NCBI GenBank assembly: GCA_001029635.1
Contig: CP011209.1
Coordinates: 157,352 to 221,351 of the forward strand
Source: Candidatus Wolfebacteria bacterium GW2011_GWB1_47_1
GTDB taxonomy: Bacteria; Patescibacteriota; Minisyncoccia; UBA6257; UBA9933
DNA: 64,000 nucleotides
Reading direction: 5' to 3'
In this document: piece by piece, positions 4,495-58,719 of the stretch
Layout of the letters: each line of letters opens with the position of its first letter
How positions within the stretch are numbered: the first letter of the stretch is position 1
Translations under genes and position numbers: made by a program
Notes under the pieces: model-generated
Told to the model about the DNA's origin: nothing
The model's database searches: none
What the model saw: the letters and a program-made list of their open reading frames with translations, nothing else

Positions 4495-4668
4495 TGCGAG
4501 CATGTAAAAATAGGGATCAGCTGGACGAAGAAAATCTCCTCAGAAACTAAGGGTCTAGGACCCGTCAGCCAGACGGGCGAGCCTTAGTTTTGCAAGAGAT
4601 TTTAGAGTCCGGCCCCTATTTTTATTCCGCGAGCGACTTTTTTGGTACTTTTTTCTAGAAAAAAGTAC
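4495..4668. repeat. Copy A of the roughly 143-bp TIR/hairpin element (4495-4637) plus the adjacent GTAC-N14-GTAC palindrome (4645-4668)
   Basis: Terminal inverted repeats tGCGAGCatGTAAAAATAGGG and CCCCTATTTTTAttccGCGAGCgac; internal long stem with apex CCCGTC-AGCCA-GACGGG. Three more copies lie at 12796, 21805 and 33837. Confidence 0.7.
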
Positions 4669-4713
4669 AGGGGAAACTTGAGGGACCCTCTTCATTTCCT
4701 ATATACTATTTGC

Positions 4714-12249: not shown

Positions 12250-12333
12250 TGTACCCCGACAGGGCTTGAACCTGCACGAGACTGCTCTCACTCGATGGTA
12301 ATCGAGCGCGTCTACCAATTCCGCCACGGGGAC
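12250..12333 (-). tRNA. tRNA-like gene, type II (Leu-type D-arm, long variable arm); anticodon arm non-canonical, so possible pseudogene or variant
   Basis: Reverse complement ...TGGCGGAATTGGTAGACGCG...GGTTCAAGCCCTG..ACCA. The anticodon region CTCGA-TTACCA-TCGAG gives a 6-nt loop, and the acceptor stem has mismatches. Confidence 0.45.
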
Positions 12334-12345
12334 AGAAAATCTTTT

Positions 12346-12426
12346 TGGTCGGAGTGAGTGGGTTCGAACCACCGACCTTCGCTGGGATCATCCATACGAT
12401 GCGCTACCGGGCTGCGCTACACTCCG
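12346..12426 (-). tRNA. tRNA-like gene (Pro-type D-arm, GGTGGTTCGAACCCACT T-arm, CCA encoded); no canonical anticodon stem-loop could be drawn
   Basis: Reverse complement CGGAGTGTAGCGCAGCCCGGTAGCGCA-TCGTATGGATGATCCCAGCGA-AGGTCGGTGGTTCGAACCCACTCACTCCGACCA. The region between the D- and T-arms is 4 nt too long and fits no 5-bp/7-nt anticodon arm. Confidence 0.4.
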
Positions 12427-12463
12427 ACACAATCGTTAAATCTAAAAAGTTTTGTTCCGAAAC

Positions 12464-12540
12464 TGGCGCGCGAGGCAGGACTCGAACCCGCGACCTCAAT
12501 CCGTGAAGGATTGCGCTCTACTCGACTGAGCTACTCGCAC
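12464..12540 (-). tRNA. tRNA with a canonical cloverleaf whose anticodon loop CTTCACG places TCA (UCA) at positions 34-36; discriminator G, CCA encoded
   Basis: Reverse complement GTGCGAG-TA-GCTC-AGTCGAGTA-GAGC-G-CAATC-CTTCACG-GATTG-AGGTC-GCGGG-TTCGAGT-CCTGC-CTCGCGC-G-CCA. Position 37 would be C, which is atypical. Confidence 0.5.
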
Positions 12541-12795
12541 GCAAATTTGGTGAAGGTGTGAGGAATTGCACCTCCAGCGAACCCAATAAAGGCCCGTCCA
12601 ATAATTTGCACCCTCAAACTTTGAGTTTATACAAAGAGCTACTACCCGCAACATGAAGGGGATGTGCTTTTAAGCTACAATCCCGAAGGTTATGGTCCTA
12701 CTGGGCACACCCATCTCCTCCATGTCTTGGAAAGTAATACCATACTCCATTACGGATCCTTTGTCAACGGAATATTCTAGAATAGTTTCGTTCTA

Positions 12796-12940
12796 TGCGA
12801 GCCCGTAAAAATGGTGGCCAAGATGGGTGTAGGGAATTTCCCCAGAAACCGAAGGTCGGGGTCCCGTCAGCAAGACGGGCAATCCTTCGGTTTTGTGAGA
12901 AATTTTCAAATCCATCCGCCATTTTTACTTCGGCTCGCGA
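12796..12940. repeat. Copy B of the roughly 143-bp TIR/hairpin element (associated GTAC palindrome at 13104-13123)
   Basis: TIRs tGCGAGCccGTAAAAATGGtGG and CCgCCATTTTTACttcgGCTCGCga; apex CCCGTC-AGCAA-GACGGG; the long stem shows compensatory changes relative to copy A. Confidence 0.7.
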
Positions 12941-13154
12941 TTTGAGCCTTGGCGTTGTGACTGGGGTCGTTGCTAGCGAGTACCCGAGCGTGCAACGCGA
13001 CGGAATGCAGGGCGCGCATCATTCTTTCGCGCGCGCTGCCTAGTGATCCTGCAACGTGCCGGCATGTCGGCGTAGTATATGTTTTTACACAAAGCCGACG
13101 GCCGTACTTTATTAAAAAAGTACGAAAAGATGAGCCCCGCATCCGCAGGAATGA

Positions 13155-15293
<2,139 letters not shown>

Positions 15294-18530: not shown

Positions 18531-18629
18531 TTTTAAAAAGGTATGCTCTAGGTGCGTGATCAATCCAATTATGTTCGCATAGTAAGAAAAATTATGTACA
18601 ATATATGAAAACACTTCGCATATAAATGA

Positions 18630-18807
18630 GTTACGCAAAATGTCGTTCGGCTTCACTCCATTTTTCGTAACGTGGAGCTTTGCGAGGGTTGGGCTTCCTC
18701 TCTTCCCTATCGGGACAAGTAAACAAGCCTCGCACCACATCGCCTAACAACCGCTTGGCGGCGTCCGCCCAAATCCCGCTCCGCGGGACTTCGCAAAGCT
18801 CCACGTT
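18630..18807. repeat. Cassette-associated repeat copy 1: hairpin module, left IR AACGTGGAGCTTTGCGAGG (18669-18687), 40-bp core in orientation A (18688-18727), right IR interrupted by a 57-bp insertion
   Basis: Shares more than 60 bp with copies 2 and 3. The core is the exact reverse complement of the core in copy 2. Confidence 0.75.
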
Positions 18808-19465: not shown

Positions 19466-19696
19466 CAAAGAATATCTGGTTCAAAATTTTCATATCAAGT
19501 ATAATAAAAAAGGAGTGTGAAAATTTCTCGACCCAAATTTTTCTTTCGCTGCTACAGAAAAACTTCAGATATTCTTAACGTTACGCAAAATGTCGTTCGG
19601 CTTCACTCCATTTTTCGTAACGTGGAGCTTTGCGAGGCTTGTTTACTTGTCCCGATAGGGAAGAGAGGAAGCCCAACCCTCGCAAAGCTCCACGTT
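19466..19696. repeat. Cassette-associated repeat copy 2 (full length): upstream module ACAAAGAATATCTGG..., hairpin module, perfect 19-bp IRs (19619-19637 and 19678-19696) flanking the 40-bp core in orientation B (19638-19677)
   Basis: AACGTGGAGCTTTGCGAGG-[CTTGTTTACTTGTCCCGATAGGGAAGAGAGGAAGCCCAAC]-CCTCGCAAAGCTCCACGTT. Confidence 0.8.
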
Positions 19697-20317: not shown

Positions 20318-20496
20318 GATTACATCAGCTAACAAAGAATATCTGGCTCAAAAATTTTTCACTTTTACATTTTCAGATGAAAGAAAAATTTTCTCGACCC
20401 AAATTCATTTCCGCTACGCTTCAATGAACTTCAGATATTCTTAACGTTACGCAAAATGTCGTTCGGCTTCACTCCATTTTTCGTAACGTGGAGCTT
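20318..20496. repeat. Cassette-associated repeat copy 3 (truncated after the left IR)
   Basis: ACAAAGAATATCTGGCTCAAAAA...CTTCAGATATTCTTAACGTTACGCAAAATGTCGTTCGGCTTCACTCCATTTTTCGTAACGTGGAGCTTTT, then diverges. Confidence 0.7.
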
Positions 20497-20673
20497 TTTT
20501 GAAATTTTTTAGAACAAGAATGACGTCCTCCCCGCACTCCCATCCTCTACTCTTTCCACGACGGAATGGATCGTGCGGGGTTTCCTGGTAAGGTAGTAAA
20601 AAAAGGCGGCAAAATTTTGTCGTCCCGGGACTTAAAACTCTCTAAAATGATTGCGTATGTTTAGCTCGTGTGA

Positions 20674-21804: not shown

Positions 21805-21975
21805 CCTGCAGCAAGCTATAAAAAGTGGGCAAAAATGATTGAAGAAAATTTCTCTTAAAATCGAGAATTTGGGACCCGTTTATTAACGGGTAATTCTCGA
21901 TTTTTTAGAAATTTTAAAGATCATTCCACTTTTTATCCCGCTTGCAGGCTTTTGCGTACTTTTCTAGAAAAGTAC
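21805..21975. repeat. Copy D of the roughly 143-bp TIR/hairpin element (21805-21948) plus the GTAC palindrome (21956-21975), inside the oriC region
   Basis: TIRs CCTGCAGCAAGCtATAAAAAGTGG and CCACTTTTTATcCCGCTTGCAGG; apex CCCGTT-TATT-AACGGG (compensatory relative to A and B). Confidence 0.7.
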
Positions 21976-22259: not shown

Positions 22260-23627
22260 ATGGAACTCGATCAACTCTGGAAATCCGCTCTTGCTGAGCT
22301 TGAAATACAAATGACCCAGCCGAACTTTTTAACCTGGTTTAAAAACAGTCGACTTATCGATCGATCCGCCGAAGGAGAACTTGTAGTATCCCTTTCAAAT
22401 AATTTTGCAAAAGAATGGGTTGAAAATAAATACCATAAATCAATTCTTGAAATTCTTATCTCTTTGGATGACTCCGTGAGGCGCGTTCGGTATACGGTTG
22501 CCATTCTCCCAACGGAACCTCAAAAACCCCTCACAGATAGCAAAAAAGAGCGTTCCGGGGCTCCTCAGCAGGCTACGTTTGATGAATTCAAAATCGATCC
22601 AGAGACAAATCTCCACCCAAAATACACGTTTAAGTCATATATAGTGGGTTCTTCAAACGAATTAGCATATGCTGCTTCCCTCGCCGTTATTAAGGATATG
22701 GGGAAAAAGTACAATCCACTGTTTATTTATGGAGGATCGGGTCTTGGAAAGACCCATTTAATGCAATCTATTGGTAATCAAATTCGCCAGACCCATGGAA
22801 ATACCACAAAAGTAAAATATATTCCTTCCGAAAAATTCGTAAATGACATTGTATTTTCCATTAAAAACAAAAGAATGGAGGATATGAAGCGCATCTACCG
22901 CTCGGTAGATGTACTCATTATTGACGATATCCAATTTATCGCCGGAAAGGCAGCGAGTGAAGAAGAATTTTTTCACACGTTTAATGCCCTGTATGATAAT
23001 GATAAACAAATAATACTTTCATCCGATCGCCCTCCTCATGAAACTGCCATACTTGAAGAGCGCCTTCGTTCCCGCTTTAGTAGCGGAATGATCGTGGATA
23101 TTTCTTATCCGGACTATGAAATGCGCCTTGCTATCATTAAAAAGAAGCTTGAGCAGGAAAATATATCCATTCCTGATTCGGTTACCGAATTTATTGCCGA
23201 AAAGATGCAGCGTAATATTCGTGAGATAGAAGGAGTCTTGAAAAAGATCATGTTTTATCAGGATGTGAAAGGAGTTGAGGTGACTCGGGGAATAGTGGAG
23301 GAAATCATTGATAAAACGACGAAGCATTCCTTTAAAAATGTAACACCAAATCAGGTTATGCAAGTCGTTGCCAATTTCTTCGAACTTGCCGAAAAGGACC
23401 TAACCGACCAAGGAAGAAGAAAGGAGGTTGTTGAGCCGCGCCAGATCGCAATGTATTTAATGAAAGATCTCCTGGGGATGTCCTACTCGGATATCGGGTA
23501 TAAGATGGGGAAAAGAGATCATTCAACCGTTATGCACGCATGTGATAAAATCTCGACATTACTCACAACCGACCAGAAGTTGGGTAATAAACTTACTTCG
23601 ATTAAGGAAGTTATCAACAGTAAATAA
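22260..23627 (+). CDS. dnaA: Chromosomal replication initiator DnaA
   Basis: AAA+ Walker A GGSGLGKTHLMQ, Walker B LIIDDIQF, sensor and C-terminal DNA-binding domain (DIGYKMGKRDHSTVMHA). Confidence 0.92.
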   Translation: MELDQLWKSALAELEIQMTQPNFLTWFKNSRLIDRSAEGELVVSLSNNFAKEWVENKYHKSILEILISLDDSVRRVRYTVAILPTEPQKPLTDSKKERSGAPQQATFDEFKIDPETNLHPKYTFKSYIVGSSNELAYAASLAVIKDMGKKYNPLFIYGGSGLGKTHLMQSIGNQIRQTHGNTTKVKYIPSEKFVNDIVFSIKNKRMEDMKRIYRSVDVLIIDDIQFIAGKAASEEEFFHTFNALYDNDKQIILSSDRPPHETAILEERLRSRFSSGMIVDISYPDYEMRLAIIKKKLEQENISIPDSVTEFIAEKMQRNIREIEGVLKKIMFYQDVKGVEVTRGIVEEIIDKTTKHSFKNVTPNQVMQVVANFFELAEKDLTDQGRRKEVVEPRQIAMYLMKDLLGMSYSDIGYKMGKRDHSTVMHACDKISTLLTTDQKLGNKLTSIKEVINSK

Positions 23628-23793: not shown

Positions 23794-24912
23794 ATGGAAC
23801 TCATTGTACTGAAAACGAACCTCAAGGAAGGGATTGCTGCACTCGGAAAGATCGGATCTGAAAATGCATCATTGCCGATCCTTAAAAATTGCCTAATTGA
23901 AACGCAAGAGAATAAGATAAAGTTTTCAGTAACTAATTTGGAAGTGGCAATATCGAGTGTTATTCCGGCGAAGGTAGTAAAAGATGGTAGTATCACAGTT
24001 CCACTAAGTATCCTCTCCTCTATTATTAATAACCTTGAGAGTGAGCGGGTAAGTTTGGAAACAAAGGTAAATAATCTGGTAATAAAGACGGAAAACTATC
24101 AGGCGAAAATACAAGGAACAAAAAAGGAGGAATTTCCGATCATTCCAAAGATCGGAAACGAAAGTGAATATCTAGAGATAGAAAGCGGATTATTAAAAGA
24201 CGGCCTTCTCTCGATAATCAATGCGAGTCAAGGTTCGGCAATTCGACCGGAACTGGGAGGTATCTTGTTTGACTATCAAGTGAATATTATAAAGTTTGCC
24301 GCAACGGACAGCTTTAGACTTGCTGAAAAGACTATTGATGAGAATCAATATAAGACAAACATCGAACAGAAATTAAAAACGATCATACCGCTAAAAACTA
24401 TTCAGGAGTTGGTGCGGGTGATGTCTGAGAAAGATGACGAAAAGATACAAATTTACTTTGATCAGAGCCAGGTATTATTCCGAACCGATAAATTTGAGCT
24501 GGTATCAAGAGTGATCAACGGAGAATTTCCTGATTATCAACCGATTATCCCGAAAGAGACTGTTATCGAAGTGGTGGTAAACCGGGAGCAGCTAGTGAGT
24601 GCGCTAAAATTAACAGGTTCGTTTTCTGATAAGATGAATGAGGTTAGGATGATCATTAAAGATGGAGTAAAAAATATCGAATTATTCTCATCAAACCCAA
24701 TATTGGGAGAAAACCAATACTTAATACCGGCGAAGATCAAAGGTGATTCGATCGAGATTGTCTTTAACTGGAAGTTTCTCTTTGATGGAATGAAAAGTAT
24801 CACAACAGAAAATATTACCATCGGATTAAATGGGGATAATAAGCCCGCAATTATTAGACCAATGAACGCAAAGGATTATTTTTATATAATCATGCCGATT
24901 AATAATACATAA
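23794..24912 (+). CDS. dnaN: DNA polymerase III beta sliding clamp
   Basis: 372 aa with a three-domain clamp pattern; N-terminal MELIVLKTNLKEGI. Confidence 0.88.
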   Translation: MELIVLKTNLKEGIAALGKIGSENASLPILKNCLIETQENKIKFSVTNLEVAISSVIPAKVVKDGSITVPLSILSSIINNLESERVSLETKVNNLVIKTENYQAKIQGTKKEEFPIIPKIGNESEYLEIESGLLKDGLLSIINASQGSAIRPELGGILFDYQVNIIKFAATDSFRLAEKTIDENQYKTNIEQKLKTIIPLKTIQELVRVMSEKDDEKIQIYFDQSQVLFRTDKFELVSRVINGEFPDYQPIIPKETVIEVVVNREQLVSALKLTGSFSDKMNEVRMIIKDGVKNIELFSSNPILGENQYLIPAKIKGDSIEIVFNWKFLFDGMKSITTENITIGLNGDNKPAIIRPMNAKDYFYIIMPINNT

Positions 24913-25044
24913 GAGCTATGAGGTTAGAGGTCGGAGATTGGAGTTATGAGATATAAGAGGTATGAAAAGTATTTATACCCCTTATCTCTAATTTCTAACC
25001 TCCGATCTCATATCTCCATCCTCATATCACACAACAAAAAAACA

Positions 25045-33836: not shown

Positions 33837-34005
33837 GCGAGCTGTGAAAATAGGGATAAAATAGGCGCAAAAAATCTCCTCAAAAATAGAGGAGCTGGGT
33901 CCCGTATAAAGGATGGGAGATTTTCGATTTTGTCAGAGATTTTTAAGCCTATTACCTATTTTTAGTCCGTTCGCGCTTTTTGCCGTACTTTTATTAAAAA
34001 AGTAC
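33837..34005. repeat. Copy C of the roughly 143-bp TIR/hairpin element (33837-33976) plus the GTAC palindrome (33985-34005)
   Basis: TIRs GCGAGCtGTGAAAATAGGgataaaATAGG and CCTATtaCCTATTTTTAgtccGTTCGCGC; apex CCCGT-ATAAAGG-ATGGG. The downstream 35 nt GAAAGAGTGAATTCCCGCCTCCGCGGGAATGAAGC parallels the region downstream of copy B. Confidence 0.7.
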
Positions 34006-34057
34006 GAAAGAGTGAATTCCCGCCTCCGCGGGAATGAAGCAGCTATGACAAAAAACA

Positions 34058-34086
34058 TTGACTAATTAAAGAACTGCAGGTATTAT
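34058..34086 (+). promoter_or_regulatory. Sigma70-like promoter TTGACT-N17-TATTAT for the tRNA-Val / S12 operon region
   Basis: TTGACT at 34058-34063, 17-bp spacer, TATTAT at 34081-34086, about 37 nt upstream of tRNA-Val. Confidence 0.5.
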
Positions 34087-39624: not shown

Positions 39625-42600
39625 TTATTGCCCCGCACCTCGCAAGAACTTGAAGGTGTCTTCGAAATTCTTAAAGATGACGTCGAAAATCGACTCACCC
39701 TTTTGTGGCGTGATGACTGTACGAGGACCGAATGTCGTCTTGTTGCCTGCCGAGTCGGTTGATTCGATCTTCATCTGATAGATCGTACCTGGCTTGAGGC
39801 TCGAAAGAATGATCGCATGATTATTGGTATATGTATCGAGCTGTTCTTCCTTGTTGGCAAATCCGTCCTTTACCTGTCCTGCTCCTTCCTGATAATAGAT
39901 GACGGAATTGGACAATTCATCCGTTACCCAAGTAATAACGGTCTGTACTCGGTCGTTTCGACCGGGGACAAGCGCTCCGTCTACTTTAAAGTTGGAGATC
40001 TTTGGAGCGGTGATATCGCGTACCGTCGAAACGGTCAGGGGAGCTCCGCCTTCAATCAAGTTGCCCTTTTCGTTGTATCCGAATACCGTTACTTCATATG
40101 CAGTTGCCGGGACAAGCTTATCGATGAGAATCTCGTGCTCCTTAACAAGCGTATTTTCTATCTTGCGCTGAATTTCTCCGGTTCTTACATTTTTGTATTC
40201 CACAATGGTTGATGCGGTATCTTCCGTGCTCCAAACAACATTGAAGGAAGTATTCTTTATGTTTATTACGCGTGCCGAGATTCTTGAGGCCTTTGTTGTG
40301 AAGGTTGTGTCTTGGCTACTACCCACAACTTGAGGTAGGGAGAACGATCTCACCATAAAGTGATATTTGGTATTTGGTTCCAATCCTACCAGGGTAAGCT
40401 GATGATCCGTTTCCTTTGATTCTGTGCGGGATATTTCTCCTACATACGGGTTTGGCCGCGTTGCGTCAAACTCGCTTTCTTTTGCGTAGAGAATGACTGC
40501 ATACGATTTGATGTTCGTCTTCCAGCTTATATCAGCCGTATTTTCGGTTATGGCCGTAATGCGGGGTTCTTCCACAAACGGCGGCAATACTCCCGGCAAA
40601 ATAGATTCGATGGTTTGCTCAACCTCTTCCTCATACTGTTTTACATCCTCCACAGTTCTGAGGCCAGGGCTTGCCTGGGTGAGATATTTAGTTTTGAAGG
40701 TCTGGCTTTCGGAGATCATCCGATTTGCCGACTTGTCGATCGCCTCGGCTTCAAACTTGTATTCCGTACCCATTTTCAACCCCGTTATTGTGAATTTATG
40801 ATGAGTCGTCCAATCGCGATGGCTGATGGTATCGGTAAAGGCATCTTTCCCATAATGCAAGAATCCAAGTGAAGGTTCGCTTGCATCAAACTCGATTATG
40901 GCTCCAAACGCAGTTGTGGTCGCTATTGTTATGTTCGAGATCGTCGGCGCGGTAGTGTCTTTTACCTCTGGCGGTGTAGACTGGCTCGCTCCTCCACCGA
41001 TAGTTACCACGCGCACTTCACCCTCCTGGGTTGTGGCAAACGTTGTAGACGTTGATACGGCCGCATTTCCCGATCCATCTCGGGATTCCACTGAAAACGC
41101 ATACGTCGTATTTGGAGTCAATGCGGTTCCCGCGTCCAATCCAATATTGACTGAGTGATACACGGAGAGGGTGGCGTCTGCCGGCGTATAGGTATTCATC
41201 GTAGAAGAACTTGCCCCATACCGCACTTGTGACGTTGCGGGCTCGCTTGTCTTCCAAAATACACTCACGCTGTTTGGTGTGCGGATTGGCGTAGAAACCT
41301 GAGAGATCGCCGGAGGGAAGGTATCGTTGGTCGTGCGGAAGGTGCGGTATGTACCACCGTTATCATCCATTGTGGTATTGCCCTGTACATCGGTCGATTG
41401 TACCGAGTAATAGTAGGTAGTCCCTGCGGCGAGGCCGGTGACGGGAACGGTATGGATAAAGTCTTCGGTTGTTGATGCATCTCCCACGGGGAGTGACGTT
41501 CCCCATACTTCCTTATATCCATTAAAGGACTGACTTACCGCATAGCGCACTAAGGTATCAGCAGTCTTATTGGTATGCCAGCTGACGAGCGCATTGGCAT
41601 CGGTAATGCCTTCGCCCGTGATCTGGGTGATATAGGGACCCGCAGTTGTATGGAAGGTATAACCCGCTCCGCTATTGTCATCGATTCCTTCATTAAGATT
41701 GGAATCCTTTGATGCAACCTTGAACACATAATCACTATCCGGGACAAGGGCCGAGAGTGTTACGCTGTGTGTTTGTCCGGCTCCCTGTTCTGTTGCGGTC
41801 ATGCCATAGGCGGCATCGCCTACTTTATTGTAGGACACGATTCCATCCGCGTCTTCATCGGTCTCCCACGTAATAGTCGCCCAGGTTGAGTGGACTACCG
41901 GTGCGGAAGGAGCGACGGTAAAGAGTGGTGCGTTAGAGTCGGAGCTACCGCGGCCGTCCGGGACATCGGTGAGTACTGGCGAGTACGCAGAAGTATCGTC
42001 GTCCGTATCGACGACAGCGATGCGATATGTGTACTCGGTCGATGATGCAACTTCGTTGTCGAGATAATAGGCCTGGAGCAATGTGGTCTGCGTGGCAAGT
42101 AAATCAAAGGTTATGCCATCAGCTGCCCGTTCCACGAGATAGTGCTTGAAGGTAGAGTTGGCAACATTGCCATGTACCGGCCATGAAATAAATTCCTTAT
42201 AGAGTTGGAGATCCGCCTTTGAGATATCAGTGAAGTCGATTCTGCTTGGCGCGCTCGGCGCAACGATAGATTGCTGACTTATGTTGCCCGAGCCATCGCG
42301 CACCTGTACGTAAATGGTCGGATAGCTCGAAGTCGCCACAGTCCATGTAAGCGATGATGCAGCTGTTGCGTTGGCATCAATCCACTGACCATCGGTCGCA
42401 TTGGTTGCCGACGATGACGAGGCGGTGAAGTTGGCAAATTCAGAGAAACGATATTGGAACGCCCCCTCGTCAGAGAATGCGAAGGTTAGTGCATTGGTGC
42501 GTGCGTCAAAGCGTGCCGTGGTGATCGTCGGGTCGGTAGTATCAATGACGAACGCGGAAGTTGTCGCGGTTGCGGTGCTGAAGATTGCCTCTTGGTCGTT

Positions 42601-45600
42601 GATCGTGATCCTGATCATCGCGGTGTTGGAGTAGACGCCATCAATATCTGCCTTGGCATCCCAATAGGCGCCGAGTACTGTAGCGGTCGCGCCGATCGGC
42701 TGTAAGCCGTTGGTGCCGCTTTCGAGCACGAGAGATGGAGAGGATGTCGCAATATCGGTCCAGGTGGAGCCATTGTCGGTTGAATACGCGAAGGACGGCT
42801 CGATGCGTCCCGGGATAGTTACGCCTTCCGCGGTATCCTCATCAAGAATGGTGTAGTTGACATGAACCTGTCCGTAGCGGGCATCGGTGGAGTCCGATAT
42901 GACACTTGCTGACTGCGATGAAAACGCCGGTCGGATATTGTACCCCGCACTGTTTGTATCGGTTGCTTCGTCTATATTGCCAAAGACATCGCGGATACGC
43001 ACGGTGATTGTTTCGCTGCGCGAGTCCACATGCCAAGGGAAGGTTGTTGTCGCAAGGGTAACACCATCGGATGCGAAGGCATCCCCCCAACTGTCTTCGG
43101 TTGCGACTCCTCCAACATAACCGTACCAGGTGGTACCGCCATTGCGGGAGAACTGCGCCTGAATCTGCTCATTGATCGGATGACCCGATAGTGAGACGAG
43201 GCGTAAGGTGACGTCTTTGGAGTCGGTGACTACAATTTCACTGGAATCGTTGATCAGTAAGGAACCGCCTGATAAGGTCGGTGGGGTGATGTCGAGAATA
43301 AACGAAGTCGATGTCGCGATACCGAGGTTATTGAGTTGCTCGGCATCATTTGCCGTTACGCGGATTCGAACATCGTCTTGTGAGACGTTATTAAGCTCCG
43401 TTTTTGCGTCCCAGTGTGCGGTGAACGATGCTGGGGTTGCCGATACCGTAGTGGACGCAATGTCCCCCGTTACGAGACTGGCCGGAATCCAAGTCGATTC
43501 CCCATCAAGTGAATAGGCAAAGGATGGTGTCGCTGCTATGTTATCAAGATCGGCGATCGTGTATTCGATGGTAACATCGGCATTGTTTGGATCAGGTGTC
43601 TGTGCCGCAGTAACCGTTACGATCGGTGCGCTGTTATATGACACGGTATTGGAATCAGTTGCGGGGCCATGGCCAAGAGTATCCATGATACGCACAGAGA
43701 TAGTTTCGGTCTTTTCGCCTAAGACAATATCCCACGCAACGGTTGACGTTGATGAGAACGACGTGCCATAGGCATCCTGTGCACCGATGGTGCCGTCGGC
43801 ATTTGCCGCATACCAAGTTACGCCGTCATGGGAAAGCTGTGCAATAATCAGCTCGCCTACCGGGGATCCGGTGACATCGGCCAACGTCACGGTGACGTTG
43901 GCGGAGGCTGCTTGTACGGTAGCGGAAGATCCGTTGATTACCACTGATGATTCGGTGAGTGCCGGCGCGGAAGTATCAAGATATAATGACGCATCAATCG
44001 ATGCGGAGAGGTTTCCCGCGATATCAATGTAGCGAACAGAGACGGTTTTGGTTGCGTCTCCCGCCGTAAGGGCATATGCCTTCGTGGTTGCGTATGATTC
44101 CGCGGAGGTCCAGGTGGTGCCATCTCCGGAGAATTGCATCTGAGTCACCGAATTATTGTCGGTTGCAGATAGATGCAAGACGACGTCGGTCGAGGTAGCA
44201 TAGGCGGATCCATCATTGATAACAAGGGTTCCGGTTGGTTCCTGGGTATCAAGCGTAATCGTATCGCTCGCGGTTTCGGAAATAAGGCCGGATCCATCGA
44301 TGACCTGCGCGGAAACACCTTGTATTCCATCGACACTCGGAATGGTCACGGATGATGTTGTCGCAAACGCAGACCAAGTAGACCAGGTAGCTCCTTCATC
44401 GGTTGAGGTCCGCATCTGGCTAGCCCCTGACCCTGCATCGGTTGCGGTGACCGTGAGGGTAACGGTTATGCTATTGGCAAACGCATTGTTGTCGTTAATA
44501 ACTAGTGAGATGACAGGCGCAATGGTGTCGATAAGAATATTGGCATTAGCCGATACGGACATATTATTACGTGCGTCACGGAACTGTGAGTAGACAGTCT
44601 TTAATCCCTCTCCCGTCGCAAGGGTATATGCTTTGGATGTCGCATATGATTCCCATGCAGACCAGTCGGTGTCGTTGTCGGAAAAGCGCATTGAGGCAAC
44701 TGATGATCCGGTATCAGTCGCAGAGAGATTTAATGTAACTGCCGTGGATGATGCATAGCTTGCGCCGCTATTAATGGCAATGGTTCCTGATGGAGCAATG
44801 GTATCGATCGCGAAATTTGCACTCGTTAATGATGCGGTATTACTGAATGTATCTGCATCGTCGGCGGTAAACCGAATGGCAAACGCGGAGCCACTCACGG
44901 CGCCTGCATACTGCGTCGCATCCCAGTAGGCGGAATATGAGGTATCAGTACCTGTCCCCACGGCAATCGGGGAACCAAATGCAACGCCAGCCGCATCGGT
45001 GAGTTGATTGATAGGAAGCGTTGCCCATAGCGAACCATCATACCATTCAAATGACGGTATCACCTGGTTTGTTGTGGAGTCGGTATCTCGGAGCGCGAAG
45101 TCGATCTTTATCTTGCCGAAGTTTGCGTCGGTAGAAGAAGCAAGTTGTGCGGCAGTAATAGACGCAATGGTTGGCGGTACGTTGTATGTATAGGTAGGGG
45201 TTACATCGTCAACCCTCGGCGTATATATTCCGTCAGAGGTGAGATCTACCTTGTATTGGAAATATTGATCTCCCGATCCATCCTGCATGGACGCGGGAAT
45301 TGAGGAAGAACCGCAGGTTACGGTGTCTGTAATCTTTCCACAGGCATTGGTGAAGGCTGTCCATATGCCAAGCGTATCGGTAGATGCGCCGGTACGGAGC
45401 GACACGGTAACGGAGGTATTAGCCGGAAGAGTCGTATCTTCTTTCCAGCTCAATCCGGTCATTATATTGGTCGCACTCGTGGAATTGTATAGGGAGGAAA
45501 GAAGCGAGCTTGTGGAAGCGTATCGTGCATATGTAATGGAAACGTCATCCAGTGACGGTGACTGCGAAGTATTTGCCGTCGAGAGCGTTGCCTTGTACTG

Positions 45601-48600
45601 AATGTATCGATGGCCCACCACTGCACCCAACGTGCTCAAGGAGATGCCGGTGTTAGTGGAAGCAGTGCCAAAGGATGCCGCATCAGAAAGATCAGCGGCA
45701 TTGCTGGTGCGCACCTGCATCGAAACAGTCTGTCCGCCCGAATTTGTCCACGAGAGATTGCCCCAGTTTGCCACTGCACTGCCCGCGTCCAAGACGCCGG
45801 AGGTGAAGGAGCCGGATGGATGGTAGCTGCCCGGGAAGGTAACAGACCCGGTCACGCTGTCGAGTGAGGGGGTAACTGCAGTATTTCCCCCGTTTGCCAA
45901 GGTAGCCTGATACCAGAGGTAGCGGCTATTAGATGGAGCGCAAGTCGTGTTAAGGGTGATTGACCCATTGGCGGAAACAGTCCCGGAATCGCAGGTGCCC
46001 GAAGCAAAGCTTGGCGCGCTCGCCGAGGTAGTTCCTTTAACCTTGATGCTGAAAGTTGTTCCCGAAGGATACTGTCCTGCGTACGCAAACGAGTTCCAGG
46101 TGTATGCGGCTGCGGAACCGGCGTCAAAGTAGGAAGTGTAGGTCCCGGAAGTGGCATACGATACGAGTATTCCAGGTACAAAAACAGTGTCTACAGTAGC
46201 AGTTGGCTGGATTGGAGCAGTAACACTGCCGGTCGTCGCCCCGTTGCCGACTTGGCCGGCGCCGTCATCTCCCCAGCACCATAAGCTTCCGTCGATGTAG
46301 GAGCAGGTGTGATTGTACCCCGTAGCAACCTGCGTCACGCCACTTGCAACGACCGTGGCAGGGGAATGTATGGCACCGGTAGTAGCCCCGTTGCCGATTT
46401 GGCCTAGACTGTCATCTCCCCAGCACTGCAGACTCCCGTCCGTCTTAACGGCGCAGGTGTGATTTTTCCCCGTAGCAACCTTCGTCACGCCACTTGCAAC
46501 GACCGTGGCAGGGGAAGTTATATTACCGGTGGTTCCCCCGTTACCGACTTGTCCCCAGCCATCATATCCCCAGCACTGCAGACTCCCTGATACGACGGCG
46601 CAGGTGTGATTGTCCCCCGCAGCAACCTGCGTCACACCGCTTGCGATAGCCGTGACAGGGGCAATCATGTCGTAGTTGGTCGCCGGCCCGTTGCCGACCT
46701 GGCCGGCGCCGTCACTCCCCCAACACTGCAGACTCCCGTCAGTCTTGACGGCACAGGTGTGTTTGGTCCCCGCGGCAACCTGTGCCACTCCACTTGCGAT
46801 GACCGTGACAGGGGAAGTTATGGCGCCGGTGGTCCCTCCGTTGCCAAGCTGCCCGTAGTTGTCATACCCCCAACACTGCAGACTCCCCGATACGACGGCG
46901 CAGGTGTGTTCGTACCCCGCAGCAACCTGCGTCACGCCACTTGCAATGACCTGGAACGGAGAAACGACATTGCCAGTCGTCGCCCCGTTGCCGACTTGGC
47001 CGTAGCTGTCATATCCCCAACATTGCAGACTCCCCGATACGACGGCGCAGGTGTGTGCGTACCCCGTAGCAACCTGCGTCACGCCACTCGCGATGACCTG
47101 GAACGGAGAAACGACATTGCCAGTCGTCGCCCCGTTGCCGATTTGGCCGTAGGTGTCGGATCCCCAGCACCACAGACTTCCGTCCGAGCTCTTAATGGCG
47201 CAGGTGTGAGTGCCTCCCCCGGCAACCTGGGATCCTAAAAGGGGTCCAGGCCCTTGGATGGATGGCTGGACTGGAGAAGTAATGTTACCGGTGGTTGCTC
47301 CGTTGCCGACTTGGCCTAGACTGTCATCCCCCCAACACCACAAACTCCCGTCCGTCTTGAAGGCGCAGGTGTAGTAGGTTCCCCCGGCAACCTGACTCAC
47401 TCCGGAAATTCCCGCGACTTGCACCGGCGAGAGCTGATCTTGCTCTAGGGCGTTGCCTAATTGGCCATATAGAATACTAGAATACGCATCGCTATAGCCA
47501 TTAGATCCCCAACACCACAAACTCCCGTCTGTCTTGACGGCGCAGGTGTGGTAATATCCCGTAGTTACCTGACTCACTCCGCTGGCAATGGTCTGGACTG
47601 GAGAGGTGACACTACCACTAGTTGTTCCGTTGCCGATCTGTCCGTTGCTGTTATATCCCCAGCACCACAGACTCCCGTCTGTCTTGACGGCGCAGGTGTG
47701 TAAGAAGCCCGCAGTTACCTGGCTCACTCCGCTGGCAATAATAGGGGCTGGAAGCATGACATAACCAGTGGTTGGTCCGTTACCAATCTGCCCGGCAGAG
47801 TCATTTCCCCAGCACCACAGACTCCCGTCTGTCTTGACGGCGCAGGTGTGGTAGACTCCCGTAGTTACCTGACTCACTCCGCTGGCAATGATCTGGTTCG
47901 GAGACGTGGTAAGGCCCCCGATCGATCCGATGCCGACCTGTCCATCGCTGTTATATCCCCAACACCACAAACTCCCGTCTGTCTTGACGGCGCAGGTTTG
48001 ACTCTTTCCTGCGGAAACCTGGACCACTCCGGAAATTCCTGCGACTTGCACTGGAGAGGGCTGATCTGACGGTATAGTATTGCCGAGTTGGCCAGTTAGA
48101 TCATAGCCATATCCTGACTCATAACCGTTAATTCCCCAGCACCACAGACTCCCGTCCGTCTTGACGGCGCAGGTATGACTGCTCCCCGCAGAAACCTGCG
48201 TCACTCCGCTGGCAATGATCTGGACTGGAGATGTAATAGCTCCTCCGATCACTCCGTTGCCAATCTGTCCATGATCGTTATATCCCCAGCACCACAGACT
48301 CCCGTCCGTCTTAACGGCGCAGGTGTGGTAATCCCCTACGGAAATTTGTGAAGACGTATCACGTAACGTTACGCTCGAATTAGAGCCGCTTACCCCGTTT
48401 AGGTTTGTGTCCGCATTTGCACCATATGCCCACCCTCCTTGCTGAGAGGGAGTTGCGACGGTGGATGTGTCATCGGTCGTTGTAATGCTTCCGGTCACGG
48501 ATTGCGTTGTGAGTGTAATCGAAGTTCCTGTCCCGCTTCCGGTAAGCGTGGTCGTTGCGGTGGTATACGCGCCATACGCAAACCCGCTTGCGGTTGTAGT

Positions 48601-48864
48601 TGCATCGCTTGTCTGGGTTATGGTCGTCGTCGCAAGCGGAAGGGTTAGCGCAGTCGAGGTCGCCAAGGTTGCCGAATTAAACTGTGTCCATCCCGTGCGG
48701 TTTGCCGATTCTGTTGCGATAGTGGCGGTTGCCCCGCCCGTCCACGCGTTTTGTGAAAAGCTCGCCGTAGTAGCCGCCTGCACAAAGTCTCCTTGTCCGA
48801 CTACAACGGATAGCAACGTAACCGCAACGGTTGCGACGGTAAGGGCTGATTTGAATATCTTCAT
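39625..48864 (-). CDS. Giant secreted surface protein (about 3080 aa from the MKIFKSALTV start): signal peptide, Ser/Thr-rich region, about 15 RCC1-like beta-propeller repeats, then multiple FN3/Ig-like domains
   Basis: Signal peptide MKIFKSALTVATVAVTLLSVVVGQGDFVQA. The motif HTCAVKTDGSLWCWGYNxxGQxGNG repeats about 15 times (RCC1/ATS1-type blades); FN3-like segments (TWATITWETDEDADGIVSYN, KHYLVERAADG...YTYRIAVVD). The internal track ORFs on both strands are artefacts. Confidence 0.85.
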   Translation of the reverse strand: MKIFKSALTVATVAVTLLSVVVGQGDFVQAATTASFSQNAWTGGATATIATESANRTGWTQFNSATLATSTALTLPLATTTITQTSDATTTASGFAYGAYTTATTTLTGSGTGTSITLTTQSVTGSITTTDDTSTVATPSQQGGWAYGANADTNLNGVSGSNSSVTLRDTSSQISVGDYHTCAVKTDGSLWCWGYNDHGQIGNGVIGGAITSPVQIIASGVTQVSAGSSHTCAVKTDGSLWCWGINGYESGYGYDLTGQLGNTIPSDQPSPVQVAGISGVVQVSAGKSQTCAVKTDGSLWCWGYNSDGQVGIGSIGGLTTSPNQIIASGVSQVTTGVYHTCAVKTDGSLWCWGNDSAGQIGNGPTTGYVMLPAPIIASGVSQVTAGFLHTCAVKTDGSLWCWGYNSNGQIGNGTTSGSVTSPVQTIASGVSQVTTGYYHTCAVKTDGSLWCWGSNGYSDAYSSILYGQLGNALEQDQLSPVQVAGISGVSQVAGGTYYTCAFKTDGSLWCWGDDSLGQVGNGATTGNITSPVQPSIQGPGPLLGSQVAGGGTHTCAIKSSDGSLWCWGSDTYGQIGNGATTGNVVSPFQVIASGVTQVATGYAHTCAVVSGSLQCWGYDSYGQVGNGATTGNVVSPFQVIASGVTQVAAGYEHTCAVVSGSLQCWGYDNYGQLGNGGTTGAITSPVTVIASGVAQVAAGTKHTCAVKTDGSLQCWGSDGAGQVGNGPATNYDMIAPVTAIASGVTQVAAGDNHTCAVVSGSLQCWGYDGWGQVGNGGTTGNITSPATVVASGVTKVATGKNHTCAVKTDGSLQCWGDDSLGQIGNGATTGAIHSPATVVASGVTQVATGYNHTCSYIDGSLWCWGDDGAGQVGNGATTGSVTAPIQPTATVDTVFVPGILVSYATSGTYTSYFDAGSAAAYTWNSFAYAGQYPSGTTFSIKVKGTTSASAPSFASGTCDSGTVSANGSITLNTTCAPSNSRYLWYQATLANGGNTAVTPSLDSVTGSVTFPGSYHPSGSFTSGVLDAGSAVANWGNLSWTNSGGQTVSMQVRTSNAADLSDAASFGTASTNTGISLSTLGAVVGHRYIQYKATLSTANTSQSPSLDDVSITYARYASTSSLLSSLYNSTSATNIMTGLSWKEDTTLPANTSVTVSLRTGASTDTLGIWTAFTNACGKITDTVTCGSSSIPASMQDGSGDQYFQYKVDLTSDGIYTPRVDDVTPTYTYNVPPTIASITAAQLASSTDANFGKIKIDFALRDTDSTTNQVIPSFEWYDGSLWATLPINQLTDAAGVAFGSPIAVGTGTDTSYSAYWDATQYAGAVSGSAFAIRFTADDADTFSNTASLTSANFAIDTIAPSGTIAINSGASYASSTAVTLNLSATDTGSSVASMRFSDNDTDWSAWESYATSKAYTLATGEGLKTVYSQFRDARNNMSVSANANILIDTIAPVISLVINDNNAFANSITVTLTVTATDAGSGASQMRTSTDEGATWSTWSAFATTSSVTIPSVDGIQGVSAQVIDGSGLISETASDTITLDTQEPTGTLVINDGSAYATSTDVVLHLSATDNNSVTQMQFSGDGTTWTSAESYATTKAYALTAGDATKTVSVRYIDIAGNLSASIDASLYLDTSAPALTESSVVINGSSATVQAASANVTVTLADVTGSPVGELIIAQLSHDGVTWYAANADGTIGAQDAYGTSFSSTSTVAWDIVLGEKTETISVRIMDTLGHGPATDSNTVSYNSAPIVTVTAAQTPDPNNADVTIEYTIADLDNIAATPSFAYSLDGESTWIPASLVTGDIASTTVSATPASFTAHWDAKTELNNVSQDDVRIRVTANDAEQLNNLGIATSTSFILDITPPTLSGGSLLINDSSEIVVTDSKDVTLRLVSLSGHPINEQIQAQFSRNGGTTWYGYVGGVATEDSWGDAFASDGVTLATTTFPWHVDSRSETITVRIRDVFGNIDEATDTNSAGYNIRPAFSSQSASVISDSTDARYGQVHVNYTILDEDTAEGVTIPGRIEPSFAYSTDNGSTWTDIATSSPSLVLESGTNGLQPIGATATVLGAYWDAKADIDGVYSNTAMIRITINDQEAIFSTATATTSAFVIDTTDPTITTARFDARTNALTFAFSDEGAFQYRFSEFANFTASSSSATNATDGQWIDANATAASSLTWTVATSSYPTIYVQVRDGSGNISQQSIVAPSAPSRIDFTDISKADLQLYKEFISWPVHGNVANSTFKHYLVERAADGITFDLLATQTTLLQAYYLDNEVASSTEYTYRIAVVDTDDDTSAYSPVLTDVPDGRGSSDSNAPLFTVAPSAPVVHSTWATITWETDEDADGIVSYNKVGDAAYGMTATEQGAGQTHSVTLSALVPDSDYVFKVASKDSNLNEGIDDNSGAGYTFHTTAGPYITQITGEGITDANALVSWHTNKTADTLVRYAVSQSFNGYKEVWGTSLPVGDASTTEDFIHTVPVTGLAAGTTYYYSVQSTDVQGNTTMDDNGGTYRTFRTTNDTFPPAISQVSTPIRTPNSVSVFWKTSEPATSQVRYGASSSTMNTYTPADATLSVYHSVNIGLDAGTALTPNTTYAFSVESRDGSGNAAVSTSTTFATTQEGEVRVVTIGGGASQSTPPEVKDTTAPTISNITIATTTAFGAIIEFDASEPSLGFLHYGKDAFTDTISHRDWTTHHKFTITGLKMGTEYKFEAEAIDKSANRMISESQTFKTKYLTQASPGLRTVEDVKQYEEEVEQTIESILPGVLPPFVEEPRITAITENTADISWKTNIKSYAVILYAKESEFDATRPNPYVGEISRTESKETDHQLTLVGLEPNTKYHFMVRSFSLPQVVGSSQDTTFTTKASRISARVINIKNTSFNVVWSTEDTASTIVEYKNVRTGEIQRKIENTLVKEHEILIDKLVPATAYEVTVFGYNEKGNLIEGGAPLTVSTVRDITAPKISNFKVDGALVPGRNDRVQTVITWVTDELSNSVIYYQEGAGQVKDGFANKEEQLDTYTNNHAIILSSLKPGTIYQMKIESTDSAGNKTTFGPRTVITPQKGESIFDVIFKNFEDTFKFLRGAGQ

Positions 48865-49075
48865 TCTATTGTAGCGTTTAGAGAATTGCATTGTATGTAT
48901 AAGTGTGTGTTTGTTTGAATAGGTTCTTCGTGTGGTATCACTTCGTAGTGGGGCTGGCTGTATATAAATCCCTTGGGGTGACTCCGGGGGTCGACTTCCA
49001 CCGGGGTCCCGATATCGTTTTTTAAAATGCAAAAATTCACTTTTTTGAAAAGTGTTCCGCAGTTCACGTATACGC

Positions 49076-49146
49076 AATGACGCACGCAAGAGTGTCATGT
49101 GTGTTCGTAGAGAATTCGTTTTTCATTTCCACGCAAATAGAAATGA
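49076..49146. promoter_or_regulatory. Conserved upstream region of giant gene 1 (AATGACGCACGCAAGAGTGTCAT ... TTCCACGCAAATAGAAATGA), repeated in inverted orientation upstream of giant gene 2 (58831-58892)
   Basis: 23-bp and 20-bp blocks are identical at both loci in the same orientation relative to each gene, 200-250 bp upstream of the start codons. Confidence 0.55.
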
Positions 49147-57120: not shown

Positions 57121-57180
57121 AAGAGTAGTATATATAGGAAGGCGATATTTTGGAAATAAAGAGCTCGGAAGTTATTGCCA

Positions 57181-57206
57181 GGTTATCCACAAAGTTATGT
57201 GGATAA
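57181..57206. promoter_or_regulatory. Palindromic pair of DnaA-box consensus sequences TTATCCACA-AAGTTA-TGTGGATAA
   Basis: Perfect 9-mers in inverted orientation 6 bp apart, immediately upstream of the parS array. Confidence 0.6.
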
Positions 57207-57229
57207 CTATGGGGCAATTCTGCCGATAT

Positions 57230-57600
57230 TTGTTTCACGTGAAACATTTAGGAGACAAGGAGGTGGAAAAATGGTTAATATTTGTTTCACGTGAAACAAA
57301 AGAACCATAAAAAGAGGGAATTAGGTGCGGAGATTTGAGAAAGTGTTTCACGTGAAACAAAAGATATAAAAAAAAGGGGGCGAGATAGCTAAAAATGTTT
57401 CACGTGAAACAAAGTGCTCTAAGGACTGTGAAACAAAAATGTTTCACAGTGAGAAAAGGGAGATAAATTGTTTCACGTGAAACAATTTATTAAAAGATAG
57501 GGGTGGAATATGAGATAAAATGTTTCACGTGAAACAAATATCGGCAATTTGCCAAATGTGAAACAAAAGTGTGAAACAATATTAAAAACTGTCAAACAAA
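57230..57600. repeat. Tandem array of six perfect 16-bp parS consensus palindromes TGTTTCACGTGAAACA (57230, 57282, 57343, 57395, 57468, 57520), one everted variant (57428-57447), and three half-sites (57556, 57568, 57589)
   Basis: Each copy is identical to the ParB/Spo0J binding-site consensus TGTTNCACGTGAAACA; spacing is roughly 50-75 bp; located between the YraN gene and the recombinase gene. Confidence 0.75.
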
Positions 57601-57810
57601 ATATGTCAACTGGTGATAAAGCGATGAAGATGAGTTGTATCCCCTCCGGCGCCCGCTTCTTGCGGGCGGGCGCCGGAAAAATAGCAGAAAATGCGAGGAG
57701 GAAATAGAGCCTTCCACTTAGAAATTGTCATTAGTAATTAAAAATTTTAAATTACAAATTAAAAATTACCCCATATGTCCTGTCGTAAAATATTTGCTAT
57801 ACTATCTGTA

Positions 57811-58719
57811 ATGGATATTAATATCTTACTAAAGGAATATTTGGATTACCTCGAGATCGAGAAGAACAGATCAAAAAAGACGGGAGAGAATTATGGAAGG
57901 TATCTGCAGAAATTTATCGATACCGAAGGTATTAGGACTGAGGAGGATATAACGATAGGGCGAGTAAGAGACTTTCGTCTTCACTTGGCGCGTTCCTCGA
58001 ACGGGAGAGGCGATCAATATAACAAGTCAACACAAAGCTACTATATAATAGCATTGAGAAACTTCCTGAAATATTTGGCAAAAAACGATCATAAGGTTCT
58101 TTCTCCTGATAAGATAGAATTGCCGAAGGTTCCGATGCGACAGATTGAAGTAATTGAGTATGACGAGCTGGAGCGGTTATTAGGCGCAGTAAACGGGGGC
58201 GACACAAAAGCACTTCGCGACAGGGCGATATTGGAGGTACTCTTTTCAACCGGGCTACGTATCTCAGAGTTATGTAGCTTGAACCGATATATGGATTTTG
58301 ACCGTGGTGAAGTGACAGTAAGAGGGAAGGGAAATAAATTACGGGTAGTGTTCTTGGACACGAAGGCCGTGGCGGCGATCAAACAATATCTCGATAGGCG
58401 GGGTGACGCCGAGGAGGCAATGTTTGTAAGTTACACCAAGGCGGCAAGCCCGAAGGTGATTGGACGGATCATCCCACGGGCGGTGCAGCGCTTAGTTGAT
58501 CATTACTCGCGCAAGGCAGGAATAGCAAAGCACGTGCATCCACACATGCTACGTCATTCTTTTGCTACCGATCTTTTGATCAATGGAGCCGACCTGCGGT
58601 CTGTCCAAGAGATGCTCGGACACGCCAATATTGCCACAACACAGATCTACACCCATATTACAAATAAGGAACTTAAAGAGGTTCATCAGGCGTTCCATGG
58701 AAAAAGAAGAAAACAGTAA
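57811..58719 (+). CDS. Tyrosine site-specific recombinase (XerC/XerD-like)
   Basis: Catalytic R...HxxR...Y pattern: RDRAILEVLFSTGLRISEL, HPHMLRHSFATDLL, IATTQIYTHI. Confidence 0.85.
   Translation: MDINILLKEYLDYLEIEKNRSKKTGENYGRYLQKFIDTEGIRTEEDITIGRVRDFRLHLARSSNGRGDQYNKSTQSYYIIALRNFLKYLAKNDHKVLSPDKIELPKVPMRQIEVIEYDELERLLGAVNGGDTKALRDRAILEVLFSTGLRISELCSLNRYMDFDRGEVTVRGKGNKLRVVFLDTKAVAAIKQYLDRRGDAEEAMFVSYTKAASPKVIGRIIPRAVQRLVDHYSRKAGIAKHVHPHMLRHSFATDLLINGADLRSVQEMLGHANIATTQIYTHITNKELKEVHQAFHGKRRKQ

Follow-up and report, generated by a model that had tools for sequence, protein, structure and literature searches.

A mosaic family of long-hairpin intergenic repeats in Candidatus Wolfebacteria

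Four similar elements of about 143 bp stand between genes in a 64-kb stretch of the genome of Candidatus Wolfebacteria bacterium GW2011_GWB1_47_1 (contig CP011209.1), and they raise the question of what kind of element they are. An earlier note on this stretch, hereafter called the window, hesitated between a miniature inverted-repeat transposable element (MITE) and a structured non-coding RNA. We found that the copies belong to a family of intergenic repeats, each built on a long hairpin, that had not been described before; bacterial repeats of this kind are known, and the family adds a new example to them. The element is a dispersed, non-coding mosaic hairpin repeat in which a long hairpin (P1) and a small one (P2) are constant and two further parts (P3 and X) are optional. 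The 143-bp hairpin described earlier is real, but it is only part of this larger unit, whose T-run and P2, and X in copy B, had been overlooked.

The four window copies (A to D) were confirmed where the earlier note had placed them, all on the plus strand. When the whole 64 kb was scanned with a covariance model with filters off, exactly four strong matches were obtained (131-148 bits), and nothing else exceeded 26 bits besides the reverse strands of the same copies. The note's descriptions of the copies were also accurate, but its labels C and D were the wrong way round for the order of coordinates: the copy at 21805 is the one with CCTGCAGCAAGC...TATAAAAAGTGG and CCCGTT..AACGGG, and the copy at 33837 has CCCGT..ATGGG. 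Mean column identity in the alignment of the four copies was 73%, and every copy folded into a single long, imperfect, rod-like hairpin of ~140 nt, with a minimum free energy (MFE) of -47 to -74 kcal/mol and z of -4.2 to -10.4 against dinucleotide shuffles. Across the family, P1 is an imperfect hairpin of ~145 nt with a stem of ~60 bp and internal loops of at most 5 nt. Its base consists of seven pairs, U-G, G-C, C-G, G-C, A-U, G-C and C-G (UGCGAGC/GCUCGCG), five of them G-C. The terminal inverted repeats that had been reported (UGCGAGC..GUAAAAAUAGGG / CCCUAUUUUUAC..GCUCGCG) do pair in all copies, but as the basal helices of one continuous hairpin and nothing more. Highly conserved unpaired positions were found in an internal loop, CUCA/GUAA, and in a GG beside the apical clamp; the apical loop and the clamp vary between lineages. 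A long AT-rich hairpin at 24899-25035, between the convergent dnaN and penicillin-binding protein genes, scored 25 bits with the P1 model on the minus strand; it shares the hairpin shape only and was rejected as a family member.

The collection was extended to other genomes. A scan of metagenomes with the conserved core, which returned 13 true loci and five chance loci (L006, L008, L014, L015 and L016), gave copies E, F, G, H and I from groundwater contigs. The covariance model added four distinct copies, J on contig L009, A' and K in L023 and C' in L024, where L023 and L024 are Wolfebacteria genomes with 79% LigA identity that were used for site comparison; copy K is also present in L024 with an equal score of 94.0 bits. 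The window genome itself carries a fifth copy, Z (L058 7699-7849), 832 nt left of the window start. In an alignment of 13 distinct copies, fitted to the covariance model, 94.8% of cells were paired and 33 of 54 pairs showed change on both sides. None of 500 shuffles reached any of these measures, and slid controls were 37-53% paired. An independent MAFFT/RNAalifold analysis of nine distinct copies revealed the identical structure, with compensatory change in 26 of 54 pairs. The copies are 25-30% diverged from one another, and their stems are intact, not decayed. The compensatory changes that the earlier note had seen among four copies are thus borne out.

P1 is followed by further conserved parts. 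Within 1-2 nt of its base, 12 of 14 units have a run of four to six T. The shortest T-runs (TTTG, in units B and G) directly precede an X module, and in C', the third unit with X after P1, the run is TTTTG, the shortest among the remaining units. No A-run matching the downstream T-run was present upstream of P1 in the 14 units. P2, an AU-rich hairpin of ~20 nt (GTACTTT-loop-AAAGTAC), lies 4-8 nt downstream of P1 and the T-run and was found in all 14 units; unit B had seemed to be without it, P1 and P2 being separated there by a ~160-nt X module with two hairpins. Compensatory change was seen in three of the four basal pairs of P2 (G-C, C-G and A-U; U-A to C-G; C-G to U-A). Contig L009 holds two compensating variants, GTAC..GTAC and CTAC..GTAG, which indicates that P2 is a hairpin and rules out a protein operator as the account of it.

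Many units run on into GAAAAAGATG and then into P3 (TTCCCGC-CTCC-GCGGGAA-TGA), a small REP-like GC hairpin. A small peptide encoded in the P3 region was rejected, since the reading frames differ between units. A P3-like palindrome, TTCCSGC-N4-GCSGGAA, also stands alone without P1 as a second, smaller repeat family (window 61727-61744; L024 1898, 2291, 2782, 9923, 9961 and 18651), and in the ligA leader of L024 such palindromes are inserted as an inverted doublet. The X module has two hairpins, CTTGGCGTTGC..GCAACGTGCCGG and GTCGG..CCGAC, the first of which contains a 3x3 internal loop that is conserved. It was located solely within P1 units, after P1 in B, L010 and L024 and inside the apical loop of P1 in L023, and it had no Rfam match.

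We found that the two strands of P1 are not equivalent. On the element strand, the consensus pairs include 44 G-U against 4 A-C, and still 32 against 4 when the conserved basal U-G is left out; the sense fold beats the antisense fold by 3-13 kcal/mol in 12 of 14 copies. Among the copies, Z alone has an orientation opposite to that of both neighbouring genes; it lies between the terminator of ftsH and the promoter of tRNA-Ile, both on the minus strand. In no other copy does the antisense strand fold more stably than the sense strand (-66.8 versus -61.0 kcal/mol in Z). Its wobbles, 3 A-C against 2 G-U, run opposite to the family bias, and the otherwise invariant basal U-G is C-A, which reads U-G on the other strand. 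Since Z shares replichore and absolute orientation with copies A-C and yet has the flipped bias, the bias tracks local transcription, not replication. A replication-linked hairpin in single-stranded DNA, as in IS200/IS605-like elements, was rejected because orientation is unchanged across the skew minimum, copies A-C and D lying on opposite sides of it in the same orientation, and because Z contradicts it. Collectively, the wobble bias and its flip in Z are suggestive, rather than proof, of a constraint that acts in RNA transcribed from the flanks. Of the 'structured ncRNA' proposed in the earlier note, this RNA-level constraint finds support; the copies have no shared promoter.

The genomic setting was as the earlier note had described it, intergenic and next to promoters. 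Genes adjoining the window copies are a NUDIX gene; ligA; rpmH and dnaA, with DnaA boxes; and tRNA-Val followed by rpsL (the S12 gene). The DnaA encoded in the window is identical to a protein of Candidatus Wolfebacteria (Parcubacteria, CPR) that is present on groundwater contigs, among them GCA_001002795.1. The GC-skew minimum at ~22-24 kb and the DnaA boxes upstream of dnaA (22260-23627) place oriC beside copy C, and unit C lies upstream of the boxes. The base of P1 is exactly where the copies start to resemble one another, and the flanks upstream of it are unrelated even between positional orthologues, so that no promoter travels with the unit. A promoter within the element was rejected as well: there is no conserved -35/-10 upstream, and TGTAAAAAT of the left arm would start an RNA inside the covarying helix 2. 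The downstream genes have promoter-like sites of their own past the unit, 10-55 nt away for NUDIX and tRNA-Val and directly abutted for ligA; L023 and L024 both conserve the NUDIX site, which in L024 has no unit ahead of it. Transfer RNA or ribosomal RNA genes adjoin 6 of 12 sites. Among tandem-gene contexts, the unit is co-directional in five (A, D, F, G and J) and opposite in one (Z); three units (E, I and K) face a convergent gene, and two (B and C) are flanked by divergent neighbours. The shape of an intrinsic terminator, a GC-rich stem followed by a U-tract, is present in 12 of 14 units, and a terminator-like position fits 9 of 11 upstream contexts, B and C having divergent neighbours.

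At ligA, unit B has the ligA -10 region on one side and on the other TTGTCAA, a motif that the divergent tRNA promoter also uses. In relatives without unit B, TTGTCA and the ligA -10 are ~20 nt apart and the latter is extended -10-like (TGGTATACT). It is firm that unit B was inserted immediately upstream of the ligA -10; that it split the ligA -35 from the -10 is less certain, given the extended -10-like promoter and the 20-nt gap of the relatives. It is possible, from the spacing of the motifs, that a hybrid ligA promoter uses the P3 tail ATGACA together with TATGCT. We also noted that ligA seems to use an extended -10 promoter only 7-11 nt from the ATG (window 13174-13193; L023 9985-10004), which suggests that the ligA mRNA may be leaderless or near-leaderless in the window genome and its relatives.

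Table 1. Positions of repeat parts and adjacent promoter-like sites (window coordinates unless a contig is named; MFE in kcal/mol)
Feature	Position	Strand	Remarks
P1 copy A	4495..4637	+	GC-rich base; MFE -66.5, z -7.1; 148 bits
T-run after P1 copy A	4640-4645	+	
P2 of unit A	4645..4668	+	small AU-rich hairpin GTACTTTTTT-CTAG-AAAAAAGTAC; basal pairs covary across units
NUDIX promoter-like site	4678..4707	+	TTGAGG-18-TATACT; 10 nt past unit A; context, not repeat
P1 copy B	12796..12940	+	shortened T-run TTTGAG; MFE -74.4, z -8.7; 133.9 bits
X module nested in unit B	12941..13102	+	hairpins CTTGGCGTTG..GCAACGTGCCGG and GTCGG..CCGAC
P2 of unit B	13104..13123	+	GTACTTTATTAAAAAAGTAC
P3 of unit B	13135..13150	+	small GC hairpin
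ATGACA tail of unit B P3	13151-13156	+	-35 spacing from TATGCT, upstream of ligA
P1 copy C	21805..21948	+	between rpmH and DnaA boxes/dnaA; MFE -59.0, z -10.4; 130.9 bits
P2 of unit C	21956..21975	+	
P1 copy D	33837..33976	+	upstream of tRNA-Val/rpsL promoter; MFE -46.9, z -4.2; antisense -33.8; 143.4 bits
P2 of unit D	33985..34005	+	
P3 of unit D	34017..34034	+	TTCCCGC-CTCC-GCGGGAA
tRNA-Val promoter-like site	34058..34086	+	TTGACT-17-TATTAT; context, not repeat
X module elsewhere	L010 6499-6588; L024 18498-18597; L023 2172-2260		orientation constant relative to P1

The occupancy of sites differs among the window genome, L023 and L024, with insertion polymorphism at sites A, B, C and K. Site A (tRNA-Asp to NUDIX) is filled in the window genome and in L023, where X sits in the apical loop, and empty in L024. 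Site B (upstream of ligA) is filled in the window genome and empty in L023; L024 is without P1 there and has the P3 doublet. Site C (rpmH to dnaA) is filled in the window genome and L024 and not filled in L023, and site K is empty in the window genome and filled in both of the others. No copy was found in 21 kb of L068, a relative that shares the gene order and whose DnaA is 85% identical, in the relatives L070, L072 and L074 (65-69% identity) or at 28 other ligA loci of Patescibacteria. The conserved-core pattern had no match in genome contigs and none in viral contigs, blastn against phage and plasmid collections gave no match, and a look-up of RpsL returned matches only from the same species. 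The family is confined to a narrow clade of Ca. Wolfebacteria. The earlier note had not recognised the family, and our comparison with Rfam 15 agrees with this: only tRNAs matched at gathering scores, and E-value searches with units A, B and D gave chance-level matches only (E at least 0.48). Our literature searches on hairpin repeats, non-coding RNAs and MITEs of Wolfebacteria and the candidate phyla radiation (CPR) turned up no paper on dispersed structured repeats in CPR/Patescibacteria.

Copies F and H are immediately preceded by truncated left arms. The target-site duplications that the earlier note had proposed as a check were absent from the junctions when filled and empty versions of sites A and C were compared, and likewise when site B was compared with L023; no direct repeats are common to the flanks of the 14 copies. 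No transposase domain was present in gene tables over ~77 kb of the window genome, which is ~1 Mb in size, no RAYT gene was seen in the same ~77 kb, and no solo arm adjoining an open reading frame (ORF) was found. The MITE-like description is supported by the filled and empty sites, the truncations and the nesting; against it, no target-site duplication was found, the ~77 kb show no transposase, and the stems are not decayed.

In kind, the family resembles ERIC, Correia/NIME and REP/BIME repeats; in sequence it is related to none of them. In Enterobacteria, the ERIC/IRU elements are imperfect palindromes of 127 bp that lie in transcribed DNA between genes. They are of similar size and form one long imperfect hairpin, and the likeness extends to intergenic location, co-transcription (presumed for our family), presence or absence between relatives, the lack of a known transposase and proposed effects at the RNA level. 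They differ in having no sequence similarity and in coming from another phylum, Wolfebacteria being CPR; moreover, the Wolfebacteria family has a one-sided U-run, an obligatory P2 with or without P3 and X, and more diverged copies. The Correia/NEMIS and NIME repeats of Neisseria are likewise hairpin repeats adjoining promoters. They can be terminators, RNase III targets or sources of promoter hexamers, and they share the mosaic layout with small GGGAAT-type palindromes (in P3, TTCCCGC-N4-GCGGGAA). P3 may resemble the dRS3 repeat of the Neisseria mosaics, ATTCCC-N8-GGGAAT. Correia elements have 26-bp terminal inverted repeats, a TA target duplication and an IHF site, whereas the Wolfebacteria family has no duplication and its P1 is paired along the entire element.

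REP/BIME and REPIN-RAYT systems also consist of dispersed extragenic hairpins with compensatory changes (PMC3116915), mosaic combinations and long persistence at a site. A REPIN is made of two inverted short palindromic REPs, whereas the arms of P1 are without self-structure; folded alone they were no more stable than shuffles (z -1.3 to +1.7), and a REP doublet was rejected because the arms do not fold on their own. P1 is furthermore longer than these elements and carries a U-run, and no RAYT was seen in the ~77 kb. With classical MITEs the family shares small size, lack of coding, terminal inverted repeats, multiple copies, insertion polymorphism and nested insertions. It differs from them in having no target-site duplication, no parent insertion sequence with matching ends in the ~77 kb, an interior that is fully paired and covarying, and a strand-specific wobble bias. 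An intrinsic terminator is matched by the GC-rich basal helix, by U4-6 within 1-2 nt, by the position between transcription units and, in most cases, by co-orientation with upstream genes; unlike such a terminator, the element has a stem of ~60 bp (against 5-14 bp), belongs to a repeat family and is often redundant with a canonical terminator just upstream.

Several other systems were considered and rejected. None of the Rfam 15 families, including 6S, SRP, Y RNA/YrlA, HEARO and OLE, gave a model match. The large central bubble of 6S RNA is absent, loops being at most 5 nt, and five copies in 77 kb compare with one or two 6S genes per genome. Integron attC sites form a cassette array beside an integron integrase and carry R''/R' cores RYYYAAC/GTTRRRY; the copies here lie 8-12 kb apart among housekeeping genes on both strands and end in GCGAGC/GCTCGC, and XerC/D is the best-scoring assignment for the window's only tyrosine recombinase. 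A retron or omega-RNA was rejected, with no partner genes and no model match.

What the units do for their host, if anything, can be read in several ways. We give about an even chance to their being lineage-specific, non-autonomous mosaic hairpin repeats of mobile type that are co-transcribed with their neighbours, constrained as RNA hairpins and used as terminators or insulators upstream of promoters. Judged from the shape of P1 alone, a terminator or insulator role is probable. We infer that the units are transcribed, that they terminate or insulate transcription and that mobility lies behind their polymorphism. Units have come and gone through insertion or deletion between genes, as a rule immediately ahead of a promoter, and a settled unit would be transcribed together with the neighbouring genes, with selection maintaining the pairing of P1 in the RNA. 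In the usual orientation, P1 and its U-run may form a factor-independent terminator or insulator between the upstream transcription unit and the next promoter, and P1 may also serve as a hairpin that protects the 3' end of the upstream RNA; these would be the most economical functions because the U-run is one-sided and follows a GC-rich base. A number of points weigh against this combined reading. The strand-flip argument comes from one inverted copy, the P2 of Z carries one G-U on the element strand, and the G-U counts are not independent because the copies are related by descent. Half of the units (A, E, J, K and A') already follow a canonical terminator, so that P1 would be redundant there; units B and C are without an obvious incoming plus-strand transcript; and a stem of ~60 bp far exceeds what a terminator needs. 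The word mobile rests on presence/absence patterns, which deletions could also produce, and neither a target-site duplication nor a transposase or recombinase is linked to the family in the ~77 kb. A further-reaching version, which we regard as rather doubtful, is that a CPR genome of ~1 Mb, poor in regulators, organises its transcription with these units as domesticated 'mobile terminator/insulator' hairpins: they would insert just upstream of promoters, be selected as RNA on the locally transcribed strand, donate promoter hexamers (as the P3 tail ATGACA before ligA may do) and offer their conserved internal loops to a host factor such as RNase III.

The rival explanations dispense with one or another part of this. 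The units may be purely selfish miniature mobile DNA, MITE- or REPIN-like, whose hairpin serves propagation only, for example as folded single-stranded DNA recognised by a transposase or recombinase encoded elsewhere, with no host or RNA role. Presence/absence polymorphism among close relatives, the narrow taxonomic range, and the truncated copies and nested modules would all fit this, and a strand-specific single-stranded DNA intermediate would likewise tolerate G-T wobble. Compensatory change has moreover been documented in mobile REPIN hairpins (PMC3116915), so that covariation alone does not prove an RNA gene or an RNA function. We nevertheless consider a purely selfish nature unlikely. 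No target-site duplication was seen at the examined junctions and no transposase in the ~77 kb; copies 25-30% diverged have intact stems, where near-identical recent copies plus decayed ones would be expected; orientation follows the neighbouring genes and not replication (A-C versus D across the skew minimum); the wobble bias flips in the inverted copy Z; and the arms, unlike REPs, are not palindromic themselves. That the units are independent small RNA genes in many copies, P1 being a stand-alone trans-acting or protein-binding RNA of ~150 nt that ends at its own U-run, is improbable. A hairpin with a U-run does resemble an RNA with a built-in terminator, covariation is strong, unpaired positions are conserved (the CUCA/GUAA loop and the GG by the apical clamp), and B and C, having divergent neighbours, would need their own promoter; but there is no conserved promoter, the flanks are unrelated between copies and positional orthologues, units are gained and lost among close relatives and are absent at 85% DnaA identity (L068), the apical loop and clamp vary by lineage, and there is no Rfam match.

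Two rivals place the function in a longer transcript. P1 could be an RNase III-type processing or insulation site, a long hairpin in read-through RNA that is cleaved in either orientation; the intercistronic RNase III sites of phage T7 are the model for such cleavage. The stem of more than 50 bp with small conserved internal loops, the seeming retention of pairing on whichever strand is locally transcribed, and the tRNA or rRNA genes at 6 of 12 sites are in keeping with this, but the conserved one-sided U-run and P2 would be left unexplained and orientation independence comes from a single inverted copy, so that we hold it to be quite improbable. The least likely rival, and a very improbable one, is a cis-regulatory 5' leader of the downstream gene, similar to an attenuator or riboswitch. 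All four window copies do lie upstream of co-directional genes; against this, promoter-like sites lie downstream of the units, the downstream genes are functionally unrelated (NUDIX, ligA, dnaA, tRNA, 23S rRNA and uvrD), convergent genes follow three of the units, a fourth (Z) is inverted, and orthologous genes in close relatives are without a unit.

Other features of the window were noted. A pair of DnaA boxes, TTATCCACA / TGTGGATAA, is found at 57183-57207; after it, within 57180-57600, the 16-bp palindrome TGTTTCACGTGAAACA occurs six times in perfect form, together with several half-sites TGTGAAACA. This region lies just upstream of the XerC/D-like tyrosine recombinase gene (57775-58719), with a local GC-skew minimum at ~56 kb, and it looks like an iteron/origin-like or regulatory region, separate from the oriC at dnaA. 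Three copies of a 71-nt repeat (18611-18681, 19561-19631 and 20427-20497; two of them identical) contain a hairpin CGTTACG..CGTAACG, and lysE and ygjV lie flanked by them in a stretch with a GC content of only 38%; this stretch is absent between relA and rnpA in L023, L024 and L068 and is therefore a possible inserted island. At 12251-12540 on the minus strand, ARAGORN called a 'SeC' tRNA (anticodon tca), an undetermined tRNA and an 81-nt tRNA-Ile, one of these calls scoring only 29.4 bits in Rfam; at the homologous place, L023 and L024 have tRNA-Asn and a tRNA-like gene that contains a long insertion. Genes at 39625-49098 on the minus strand and from 58879 to the window end on the plus strand encode giant proteins of 3157 aa and ~2235 aa, respectively. 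The tandem repeats of 147-150 nt at 46150-48350 and 59488-61540 code for the RCC1/WD40-like domains of these proteins.

In summary, the family is a clean, covariation-supported structured repeat in the CPR, and its notable features are this host, the modular grammar of P1, P2, P3 and X, and the strand-specific wobble signal. The covariance model can flag spurious ORF calls over repeats (window 12795-13043; L058 7675-7917) and is usable as a strain-level marker for groundwater Wolfebacteria. If the RNA-level reading is true, the strand flip of the wobble bias would offer a simple computational test of RNA- versus DNA-level constraint on palindromic repeats. It would also mean that the smallest bacterial genomes tolerate, and perhaps use, mobile hairpins to punctuate transcription, and that the core genes so punctuated include dnaA/oriC, ligA, and tRNA, rRNA and ribosomal-protein operons.

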